In this document: positions 31,569 to 33,668 of the stretch, in pieces | Layout: every line of letters starts with the position of its first letter | Numbering within the stretch: the stretch's first letter is position 1 | Assembly (NCBI GenBank): GCA_036522075.1 | Contig: DATDGM010000140.1 | Coordinates: 4,004-68,003, forward strand | Length of the DNA stretch: 64,000 bases | Source of the DNA: Candidatus Sulfotelmatobacter sp. | GTDB lineage: Bacteria; Acidobacteriota; Terriglobia; Terriglobales; Acidobacteriaceae | Direction of reading: 5' to 3' | Notes under the pieces: model-generated | Database searches by the model: none | What the model was told of the DNA's origin: nothing | The model's input: only the letters and a program-made list of their open reading frames with translations | Program-made: the position numbers and the translations under genes

Positions 31569-33668
31569 ATGCATAAGCCCATCAAATACCTCGAAAAGGC
31601 GATGTCCATTGCTGCCAACGGGGCGTGGCAAATATTTTGCTGGAGTAACAATCTCTTGCCGGAAAATCCATCTTTCACACCCGGGTGGTCGGATAAGCCG
31701 CTGCTGAAGTCCCGTGAAAAATCGAAGCCGCCGCTGGGCTGGCCGCGCGAAACCGATTCATTGTGTCCCCGCTGCGTGCCCGAAATCCGCCAGCAAATCG
31801 TCGACGGCAAACAGGATTATCGCATCCTGTTGAACGAAAGGCCCGGTGAAATCAAGGCGCAGATCCTCGAGCGCGACGGCAAAATCCTGATGGTTAAGGA
31901 TTGCCCGGTCCACGGACATTTCGAAGATGTCATCTCCATTGATCCGCAATTCTTCCGGCATCTGGAGGAGACTTTTCCCGGCCGCGATATCCGCGCCCAT
32001 AACGACGAAAAACTGCACAACCACGGCAACAGCACGATCAAGCACGGGCGCGGCTCGGTTCTCACCGTCGACCTGACCAATCGCTGCAACATGATGTGCG
32101 ATCCATGTTTCATGGATGCCAACCAGGTCGGATTCGTACACGAGCTTACCTGGGAGGATATCAAGAGGCTCCTCGACAACGCATTTTCCATCAAGCCGCG
32201 GCGTCAGATGTCGGTGCAGTTCTCCGGGGGCGAGCCCACCCTGTCCCCGCATTTTCTGGAGGCTATTCGATACGCCCGTCAACTGGGCTACGACAGCGTG
32301 CAAGCGGCAACCAACGGCATCGAATTCGCCAAGAGCCCCGCGTTCGCACGGCAGGCCGCGGAAGCCGGTTTGCGCTACGCGTATCTGCAATTCGACGGCA
32401 TCGGCAACCCGGCAAATTCTCATCGCAATGTCGGCAACCTGTTCGACCTGAAACTGCGGGCCATCGAGAACCTGCACTCGAACGGCGTGGAAATCGTACT
32501 GGTGACCACCGTGGTCAACGGGATCAACAATGAGCAGGTGGGGCGCGTAGTGCAATTCGCGCTCGACAACCCGGAGAAGATCGCCATGGTGTCGTTCCAG
32601 CCGGTGTCTTTCACGGGCCGCGACGAAGCCGTCACTGAAGAACGCCGCAAAGCGCAACGCTACACCCTCTCGCATCTGGCCCACGATGTGAAAGAACAAT
32701 TGAGCATCGGCGAGCCCGTTCGCGACTGGTTCCCACTCTCGTTCCTGAGCACATTTTCCGACTGGGCAGACCTGGTTCACGGCCCGGAGGCCGCCTGGGG
32801 CCAAGTCGCCTGCAGTTGTCACCCGAACTGTGGGGTGGGAATGGCGATCATGGTGGACAAGGAGACGCGCGAGGCGATTCCGGTGACCGCGTTCCTGGAC
32901 GCCGAGCAGTTTGCCAAGGACATTGCGAGGATCAACGATTGGGCTCGCAGCCGGTGGATATCGGTGGCGGGGATGGCGCTGGCATTAGTTCGGAATTACG
33001 ATGCGTTCCATGCGCCGAGGCATTTCCGCGCTGTGGATATATTGAGGAAGCTGGACAAGGGCCTGGGCGCAACCGGACGCGACTATGGTGACGTCTCCGG
33101 CAAGCGAACCATGGCTGACATTTTCCGCCGCCGCCGCGACCGCTGGAACTTGCTGTTCGTGGCGGGCATGTGGTTCCAGGATCTATTCAACTATGATTTT
33201 CGCAGGACGGAGCAGTGCATCATCCCATATGCGACGCAAGAGGGAGAGATATCCTTCTGCGCCTACAACACCGGGATGGGTTGGCGGAACATCGTGGAGA
33301 AGATGCATATGACCGCCACGTTGACCAAATGGTACGAGGAGCATGGACGGCATGAGATTTTCGCGGGCGGCAAGAGCGTGAAGCTCAGCAGTACGGAGCA
33401 TCATCTGGTCTTGAAGGACGAGATCGTCACCAACGAGGCCCAGCATGATCTCGAACAACTCGGCATTGCGAAGAACGCCCGCGAGGAGAAGCTGCGGGCC
33501 CGGGCCGAGCGGCTCAAGGGGGAGGAAGAAAACCTTCGCATGGCGAAGCTCTACCGCGAGTTCGTACTGAAAGAACGAACAGTTCCAGAGCTAGTGCAAA
33601 TCGAGTTCGGGACTACAGTGCCGCCCGCCGAGGCTGCCGGAGAAGCTGTTCGAGGTAGCGGAGATTAA
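31569..33668 (+). CDS. Radical SAM enzyme with N-terminal Cys/His metal-binding knuckle; tetraether-lipid-synthase (Tes / GDGT-MAS)-like
   Basis: 699-aa ORF. It has CPRC...CPVHGHF (rubredoxin/zinc-ribbon-like), the radical SAM cluster motif LTNRCNMMCDPCF (CxxxCxxC) and FSGGEPTL. Additional Cys motifs are ACSCHPNCG and ISFCAYNTG. The architecture matches what I recall for the Tes/MJ0619 family. The radical SAM call is firm. The Tes assignment is inference. The start could be the downstream Met at 31602. Confidence 0.85.
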   Translation: MHKPIKYLEKAMSIAANGAWQIFCWSNNLLPENPSFTPGWSDKPLLKSREKSKPPLGWPRETDSLCPRCVPEIRQQIVDGKQDYRILLNERPGEIKAQILERDGKILMVKDCPVHGHFEDVISIDPQFFRHLEETFPGRDIRAHNDEKLHNHGNSTIKHGRGSVLTVDLTNRCNMMCDPCFMDANQVGFVHELTWEDIKRLLDNAFSIKPRRQMSVQFSGGEPTLSPHFLEAIRYARQLGYDSVQAATNGIEFAKSPAFARQAAEAGLRYAYLQFDGIGNPANSHRNVGNLFDLKLRAIENLHSNGVEIVLVTTVVNGINNEQVGRVVQFALDNPEKIAMVSFQPVSFTGRDEAVTEERRKAQRYTLSHLAHDVKEQLSIGEPVRDWFPLSFLSTFSDWADLVHGPEAAWGQVACSCHPNCGVGMAIMVDKETREAIPVTAFLDAEQFAKDIARINDWARSRWISVAGMALALVRNYDAFHAPRHFRAVDILRKLDKGLGATGRDYGDVSGKRTMADIFRRRRDRWNLLFVAGMWFQDLFNYDFRRTEQCIIPYATQEGEISFCAYNTGMGWRNIVEKMHMTATLTKWYEEHGRHEIFAGGKSVKLSSTEHHLVLKDEIVTNEAQHDLEQLGIAKNAREEKLRARAERLKGEEENLRMAKLYREFVLKERTVPELVQIEFGTTVPPAEAAGEAVRGSGD

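Follow-up and report, generated by a model that had tools for sequence, protein, structure and literature searches.

The closest characterized relative of the protein described here is the tetraether lipid synthase (Tes) of archaea, represented by GDGT-MAS (MJ0619) of M. jannaschii. This radical S-adenosylmethionine (SAM) enzyme carries four metal sites, namely a rubredoxin-like Fe bound by C9x2C12x20C33x2H36, a [4Fe-4S]N cluster held by C73, C77, C80 and a His, the radical SAM (RS) cluster of its CX3CX2C motif, and a [4Fe-4S]C cluster with the labile ligand Met439 (Lloyd et al., PMC9433317). The rubredoxin Fe and the [4Fe-4S]N cluster lie on the surface and have unclear roles, and the chemistry of a C-S intermediate is assigned to the RS and C clusters (Lloyd et al., PMC9433317). 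Here we analyze a Tes homologue encoded in a 64,000-nucleotide stretch of contig DATDGM010000140.1 (hereafter the window) from the acidobacterium Candidatus Sulfotelmatobacter sp., in which an open reading frame (ORF) with an ATG start at positions 31569..33668 of the (+) strand specifies a protein of 699 amino acids (aa).

Glycerol dialkyl glycerol tetraethers of the branched type (brGDGTs) rank among the most widely applied terrestrial proxies for palaeotemperature and pH, and only candidates have been put forward for the enzyme that assembles their membrane-spanning skeleton in Acidobacteria. Iso-diabolic acid is reported from subdivisions 1, 3, 4 and 6 of this phylum, from which the bacterial tail-coupling enzyme Mss is reported to be absent (PMC13159169). 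Acidobacterial Tes homologues were proposed as makers of brGDGTs in 2022 (PMC8941075) and were still unconfirmed in that role in 2025 (PMC11868695), and a 2026 review describes bacterial Tes homologues as bioinformatic detections only. They have also been discounted after a survey of producers of iso-diabolic acid, which is weighed below. The brGDGT hypothesis is thus not new, and the first-pass annotation of the window, which presented acidobacterial Tes homologues as unproven candidates for the synthesis of iso-diabolic acid or brGDGTs, agrees with this literature (PMC8941075, PMC10087280, PMC11868695). What we add is modest: a long clade of Tes homologues that lacks the N cluster, and the place of this clade on the thresholds used in searches, neither of which we have met described in the literature.

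We find that the window protein resembles archaeal Tes along its whole chain, retains the ligands of the two clusters to which Tes chemistry is assigned, and belongs to a clade of its own that is very widespread and highly conserved in Acidobacteriota. We favor, with a probability of about 0.55, the reading that it is a stand-alone acidobacterial enzyme that would join the tails of glycerolipids to give precursors of iso-diabolic acid and brGDGTs, using its RS and C clusters. We call the gene stand-alone because its neighborhood varies from locus to locus.

Fold and metal sites of the 699-residue protein

The top NCBIfam model for the protein is that of Tes (NF045702; 324.1 bits, E=1.3e-96), which has an equivalog cut-off of 450 bits. 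The second-best model, for the TrsS radical SAM (seleno)protein (NF045646), gives 215.7 bits against a cut-off of 490 bits and was rejected, as was an identity as HMPT-methyltransferase. Pfam recognizes the domains Zn_ribbon_HMPTM (residues 59-123) and Radical_SAM (169-331). Among solved structures, PDB 7TOL of M. jannaschii GDGT-MAS is the sole strong match (phmmer E=3.4e-67, query residues 95-590), and the identity to MJ0619 is 33% over about 490 residues. An AlphaFold2 (AF2) model built from a 31-sequence alignment (pLDDT 81.5, pTM 0.82) matches 7TOM in Foldseek over about 550 aligned columns (E=4.9e-37, target-normalised TM 0.86), whereas the remaining radical SAM structures align to the core barrel only, with E>=3.7e-8. 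Because the phmmer match to 7TOL and the predicted fold match to 7TOM are not confined to this core, the protein is a whole-chain homologue of archaeal Tes/GDGT-MAS, including the lipid-pocket C-terminal domain.

All but one of the four metal sites can be traced. In an alignment of 66 full-length orthologues and the query (67 sequences, used for all conservation values given here), residues C66, C69, C112 and H115 align to C9, C12, C33 and H36 of the rubredoxin-like site and are 100% conserved, and the same holds for the RS ligands C173, C177 and C180. Residue M534, which falls opposite Met439 when residues are counted along the 7TOL alignment, is likewise invariant, as are C421, C550 and C564, which fill Cys columns in common with canonical Tes; the identity of the three C-cluster Cys ligands of MJ0619 is itself inferred from conservation. 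Residues C415, C417 and H418 are also 100% conserved.

The exception is the [4Fe-4S]N cluster. Opposite the MJ0619 sequence CPYDCGLCPNH stands LHNHGNSTIKHG, which has no Cys. Of just 12 Cys in the whole protein, C24 is the only one outside the three metal-site regions, and it is not conserved. The N cluster is therefore absent. The replacement segment is nearly invariant (H144 100%, H150 99%, H152 100%) and is therefore a conserved feature rather than a product of decay. Its three His residues could form a new metal site or a site for binding a partner, and AF2 gives pLDDT <50 at residues 143-150.

Both termini extend beyond the Tes core. The N-terminal extension has a predicted helix at residues 2-28 (pLDDT 83-93) and a stretch, NPSFTPgWSDKPLLKS..KPPLGWPR, that is kept among orthologues. 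The C-terminal extension of about 109 residues is charged (18 E, 3 D, 9 R, 8 K), has a long predicted helix at residues 636-666, and falls in conservation to 0.26-0.71.

The first-pass annotation had described the protein as Tes/GDGT-MAS-like from its Cys motifs and charged tail. Each of these elements is present, comprising C66-P-R-C69, C112-P-V-H115-G, N-R-C173-NMM-C177-DP-C180, C415-S-C417-HPN-C421-G, F-C564-AYN and the tail itself. Homology to Tes is borne out by sequence, family model and predicted fold, with Tes as the best family, and the rubredoxin, RS and C-cluster ligands proved invariant. The canonical type does not hold: the score is under the equivalog cut-off, the Cys triad of [4Fe-4S]N is missing, and the protein falls in a separate clade of a neighbour-joining (NJ) tree.

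Two types of Tes homologue and their distribution

An exhaustive search of representatives at 50% identity yielded 611 clusters at E<=1e-30, and the full-length representatives split cleanly into two types on alignment. The canonical type, which includes MJ0619 and a Phycisphaerae representative, has the motif CPxxCGxCxxH, a rubredoxin spacer of 20-27 residues and a length of about 500-550 aa. The long type has no Cys triad, a spacer usually of 35-43 residues (20 in one exception, representative P0252), and longer N- and C-terminal extensions. These long-type features are common to representatives down to about 40-60% identity, and the window protein shows them all: membership of the ~690-715 aa length class, a 42-residue spacer, the His-rich segment, the C-terminal extension and a place in the separate clade. 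The NJ tree, which is crude and no substitute for maximum likelihood, puts the two types in separate clades, with one motif-less exception inside the canonical clade. Identity between the query and the canonical representatives is 29.5-34% throughout, as against 38-49% between these representatives and MJ0619. By these comparisons the protein is a divergent bacterial relative of Tes and not canonical Tes, and the phrase 'acidobacterial Tes homologue' covers two different proteins.

Within the long clade, one branch (P0253, P0264 and P0291) has lost the equivalent of C421 and does not keep that of C550 in the aligned column, which suggests a third functional subtype in the Tes superfamily.

More than 8000 database proteins match the query. 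The best 120 are 80-95% identical, and the named organisms among them are Terriglobales, Ca. Sulfotelmatobacter, Ca. Aquilonibacter and Bryobacterales/Bryobacteraceae. Relatives occur in at least 599 species genomes (searched as contigs, one genome per species), of which the best 80, at 71-96% identity, all belong to Acidobacteriota and include Acidobacteriaceae, Bryobacterales, Blastocatellia, Vicinamibacterales and the isolate Acidipila rosea. The nearest relative, at 96%, is from a metagenome-assembled genome (MAG) of Ca. Sulfotelmatobacter, and a MAG labelled Ca. Solibacter usitatus (L025) has an orthologue at 73%.

Both types may already be represented in published work on the brGDGT producers S. 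usitatus and E. aggregans. In S. usitatus, Acid_5929 has 545 aa and 40% identity to MA_1486 (e-139), and Acid_2410 (Q025C7) has 714 aa and 30% identity (e-62) (Halamka et al., PMC10087280, Table S5). E. aggregans has a single Tes homologue, at 32% identity and e-61 (Zeng et al., PMC8941075). We infer that the window protein corresponds to Acid_2410, by length and level of similarity, and to the E. aggregans homologue, by level of similarity.

Candidate function

The protein would couple two iso-branched glycerolipid chains, acyl or alkyl, at their terminal carbons. The products would be membrane-spanning lipids of the iso-diabolic acid type, which form the brGDGT skeleton. By analogy with GDGT-MAS, the RS cluster (C173/C177/C180) would cleave SAM, and the resulting 5′-deoxyadenosyl radical would take a hydrogen from the terminal methyl group of one tail. 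The tail radical would then be held on a sulfide belonging to the C-terminal cluster (C421/C550/C564, with M534 as the labile ligand) until a second SAM activates the second tail, whose attack would form the C-C bond. On this scheme the surface [4Fe-4S]N cluster would have been lost and the two clusters of Tes chemistry kept.

Several observations weigh against this reading. The Tes equivalog cut-off is missed by the score of 324 bits against 450, and the aligned segment described above lacks the [4Fe-4S]N ligands; because the role of that cluster is unclear, the activity could differ from that of Tes. No lipid-biosynthesis neighbor that might back the proposed substrate is conserved across the 80 loci surveyed below. 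We found no report in which a bacterial Tes homologue had been tested biochemically or genetically (PMC11868695), and the correspondence to Acid_2410 and to the E. aggregans homologue was drawn from length and similarity level. Finally, Sahonero-Canavesi et al. found Tes homologues in 3 of 14 acidobacteria that produce iso-diabolic acid. Their thresholds were E<=1e-50 and identity >=30%, and since the identity of the long clade to archaeal Tes straddles this 30% cut-off, the figure may be an undercount.

The main rival to a stand-alone tail-coupling enzyme is a protein with the Tes fold and another job, acting either on lipids through a different radical reaction (cross-linking, cyclisation or desaturation) or on a non-lipid substrate. 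The low family score, the separation of the clade (29.5-34% identity to canonical proteins that are themselves 38-49% identical to MJ0619), the exchange of the N cluster for a conserved His-rich segment, and the clade-specific extensions at both ends could all mark such a change. In addition, homologues occur in bacteria without biphytanyl chains (Lloyd et al., PMC9433317), and an earlier, mistaken assignment of the family as pterin methyltransferase is still visible in database names. We nonetheless regard a different job as the less likely reading. The predicted match covers Tes from end to end, with the C-terminal domain of lipid pocket and cluster included (TM 0.86), and there is no variation in the C cluster, Met ligand included, on which the C-S intermediate is carried. 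Moreover, the taxonomic spread of the clade fits that of known producers of membrane-spanning lipids, which lack Mss.

If tails are indeed joined by these proteins, then which acidobacterial homologue is responsible? We tentatively put forward the long clade without an N cluster, rather than canonical-type Tes or Mss, as the missing iso-diabolic acid/brGDGT synthase of aerobic Acidobacteria, working with the RS and C-terminal clusters only, an idea we hold with less confidence than the tail-coupling activity itself. If true, the clade would largely have escaped notice, since the 30% cut-offs of published surveys fall within its range of identity to archaeal Tes (29.5-34%). With Mss absent from the phylum and Tes homologues discounted after the 3/14 survey, the split into two proteins narrows the choice of a candidate gene for brGDGTs, and the fatty-acyl/MMPL cluster that surrounds the gene in the window can be dropped as a misleading lead.

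Gene context and comparison with described systems

The Tes homologue lies between two groups of genes on its own strand (Table 1), and family searches confirmed that the neighbors named in the first-pass annotation (KS, KASIII, methyltransferase, ACP and MMPL/LolA genes) are real. That annotation had omitted the reverse-strand PHP_C-like gene and the small ORF that set the homologue apart from the KS half. Gaps of 116 bp and 153 bp border the Tes gene, in contrast to the genes of the cluster, which overlap or directly adjoin one another.

Table 1. Features of the Tes homologue and its surroundings (positions in the window)
Feature	Position	Strand	Basis
Long-type Tes homologue gene (radical SAM)	31569..33668	+	ORF, Pfam, NCBIfam NF045702, PDB 7TOL, AF2/Foldseek 7TOM
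65-residue N-terminal extension (residues 1-65)	31569..31763	+	Extension lengths in alignment
Rubredoxin-like site C66-x2-C69 ... C112-x2-H115, 42-residue spacer	31764..31913	+	Alignment to MJ0619
Segment in place of [4Fe-4S]N loop, DIRAHNDEKLHNHGNSTIKHGRGSVL (residues 140-165), no Cys	31986..32063	+	Alignment to MJ0619
Radical SAM CX3CX2C (C173, C177, C180)	32085..32108	+	Pfam, 7TOL alignment, motif
C-terminal auxiliary-cluster region (C415/C417/H418/C421, M534, C550, C564)	32811..33260	+	Alignment
Charged C-terminal extension, ~109 residues (591-699)	33339..33665	+	Composition, extension lengths, AF2
Upstream half of aryl-polyene/flexirubin-like cluster (polysaccharide deacetylase, family 2 glycosyltransferase (GT2), DUF2062-methyltransferase, ketosynthase (KS), chain-length-factor (CLF)-like KS, KASIII-like)	22361..28514	+	
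DUF2062-methyltransferase	23971-25122	+	
KS	25229-26449	+	
CLF-like KS	26446-27519	+	
KASIII-like	27516-28514	+	
PHP_C-like gene between Tes and KS genes	29744..30808	-	Pfam PHP_C, 22 bits
Small ORF, signal-peptide-like N-terminus, no family match	31012..31452	+	
Downstream cluster half (LolA2_flexi-like through LpxL-type acyltransferase)	33822..42907	+	
LolA2_flexi-like	33822-34577	+	54 bits, cut-off 125
FabZ/ApeP-like (ApeP/ApeI-like) dehydratase	34577-35026	+	
MMPL/HAE3 (HAE3/HpnN-like)	35095-37704	+	
Large LolA-like protein, 1007 aa, no curated family	37705-40728	+	
Short-chain dehydrogenase/reductase (SDR)	40739-41515	+	
Acyl carrier protein (ACP)	41629-41928	+	
LpxL-type acyltransferase	41996-42907	+	

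The flanking gene set as a whole is one that we presumptively liken to aryl-polyene (APE)/flexirubin clusters. Like these, it has a KS with a CLF-like KS, an ApeP/ApeI-like dehydratase, ACP, SDR, GT2, a DUF2062-methyltransferase, an LpxL-type acyltransferase, and MMPL and LolA-like export proteins, including one that is LolA2_flexi-like. Unlike them, it shows no ammonia-lyase or aryl-starter genes, and the matches of its genes to curated models are all below cut-off. Judged by gene content, the flanking genes thus resemble an assembly and export cluster of this kind that is split by three unrelated genes. We read the Tes homologue and the two small genes as interrupting an otherwise self-contained cluster.

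The first-pass annotation took this setting to link tail coupling to a specific fatty-acyl assembly line. In this scenario the homologue is a dedicated member of the cluster that couples its acyl tails, and MMPL/LolA proteins export the product. We consider this very unlikely, although the local arrangement is suggestive: the gene stands between both cluster halves on the same strand, no terminator-like site on the (+) strand separates it from the LolA2-like gene (the terminator-like hits obtained are unconvincing), and the arrangement recurs in loci L001, L003, L081 and L083, where Tes is 88-96% identical. In L081 the gene called downstream even begins before Tes has ended. Tes may be transcribed together with the export genes downstream of it in the lineage that has the embedding; a scan for sigma-70-like promoters at 28.4-35.2 kb found none, a result that is uninformative for Acidobacteria.

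The survey of other genomes speaks against it. We compared 23 window proteins by tblastn with the flanks, extending +-10 kb, of the best 80 Tes loci (L001-L080), and looked up five further loci (L081-L085; 85 in total). KS, KASIII, MMPL, LolA, ACP and acyltransferase genes lie near Tes in L001, L002 and L003 only (3/80), and in L002 they follow a different order. The other 77 loci, with orthologues that are 71-78% identical, have no cluster gene inside this range. The embedding persists in L081 and L083 (Tes 88-90% identical), whereas in L084 (80%) Tes lies between malate synthase and arginine genes. In L085 (84%) three B12-binding radical SAM genes flank Tes and APE-like genes begin about 7 kb away; in both L002 and L085 the cluster genes are arranged differently and stand about 6-7 kb off. 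Conversely, in L082 the deacetylase-GT2-DUF2062-KS-CLF-KASIII block gives way to unrelated genes, with neither Tes nor MMPL beside it. The CLF-like KS family is also far narrower than the Tes family (881 versus >8000 matches), and an enzyme kept at >70% identity across several orders is unlikely to depend on lineage-restricted partners. Because the cluster is absent from 77 of 80 loci, and because L082 has the KS half without Tes and L084 has Tes without the cluster, the embedding is a feature of one lineage (Tes >=88% identical) and not a functional link. The Tes gene does not function within the KS/MMPL cluster on either side of it but happens to interrupt that cluster in this lineage. The context argument of the first-pass annotation thus falls away, as does the expected conservation of synteny with KS, ACP and MMPL genes among acidobacterial loci.

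No other neighbor takes the place of the cluster. The PHP_C-like gene adjoins Tes in L001-L003 and travels with it only in the close lineage; the reverse-strand gene upstream of Tes in L081 and L083 matches it by length and position only. When ORFs were clustered over the 80 loci, no neighbor family occurred in more than 11. The recurrent ones, named by reading of their sequences rather than by hidden Markov models, are tetratricopeptide repeat (TPR), QueG-like, MutY-like, MacB-type, GAF and extracytoplasmic function (ECF)-sigma genes, which look like unrelated housekeeping genes. MacB-type permeases (family c5) are near Tes in 7/80 loci, probably by chance.

B12-binding radical SAM genes occur near Tes in 5 of the 85 loci, namely L085, L002, L004 and, more weakly, L016 and L033. 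Up to three of them flank Tes, as in L085 (L085:8501-15325), and one stands 76 bp upstream of Tes on the same strand. Among curated models these neighbors come nearest to HpnR (hopanoid C-methylase), scoring 227 bits where the cut-off is 650. With so few loci, no such gene in the window and no curated family matched, we rejected them as a general partner of Tes. [quoted passage not shown]

The 64-kb window holds no second Tes, and the only other gene of this kind found is an unrelated radical SAM/SPASM gene at 57840-58964 (+), ~24 kb from Tes, whose 374-aa product matches AhbD, NirJ2 and mycofactocin maturase models, all below cut-off. GMGT synthase is likewise a SPASM-type radical SAM protein, and acidobacterial Gms homologues co-occur with Tes homologues (PMC11214058).

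Elsewhere in the window, positions 19470-21885, directly upstream of the cluster and on its strand, encode a 488-aa cytochrome P450 and a 300-aa fatty-acid desaturase, which may tailor the product of the cluster. Two large, convergent Ser/Thr protein kinases with TPR repeats are encoded at 12830-15412 (+) and 15455-18763 (-), the latter with an N-terminal OmpR-type DNA-binding domain. At 45933-51633 (-) are genes for an ABC ATPase, an HlyD-type adaptor and three tandem MacB/FtsX-type permeases.

Least credible of all is the idea that the protein is canonical Tes and turns archaeol-type diethers into isoprenoid GDGTs. We reject it despite best family and structure matches to archaeal Tes, given the score below the equivalog cut-off, the absent N cluster, the separate clade and an acidobacterial host, as isoprenoid GDGT synthesis is not known from any bacterium (Zeng et al., PMC8941075).

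Among described systems, archaeal MJ0619 shares with the window protein its fold (TM 0.86), CX2C...CX2H and CX3CX2C motifs and a C-terminal cluster with a Met ligand. The two differ in that only 8 residues precede the CxxC of MJ0619, whose first ligand is C9, whereas the query has a 65-aa N-terminal extension. The query also has no [4Fe-4S]N Cys triad but a His-rich segment, a spacer of 42 rather than 20 residues, a C-terminal extension of about 110-135 aa, and a bacterial host with fatty-acyl rather than isoprenoid lipids. Mss of Thermotoga maritima and Thermoanaerobacter ethanolicus is a radical SAM enzyme that couples fatty-acyl tails into diabolic acids and so is a proposed functional analogue. 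It belongs, by its description, to a different family and is reported to be restricted to anaerobes and absent from acidobacterial genomes. Canonical bacterial Tes (Acid_5929 and the Phycisphaerae protein) is of the same superfamily as the query and is likewise proposed for bacterial membrane-spanning lipids, but it has CPxxCGxCxxH, a short spacer and about 500-550 aa, and groups with MJ0619, whereas the query lies in the sister clade. The closest likeness is to Acid_2410, which shares with the window protein a size class of about 700 aa, 30-32% identity to archaeal Tes at E values of about e-61 to e-62, and the same phylum.

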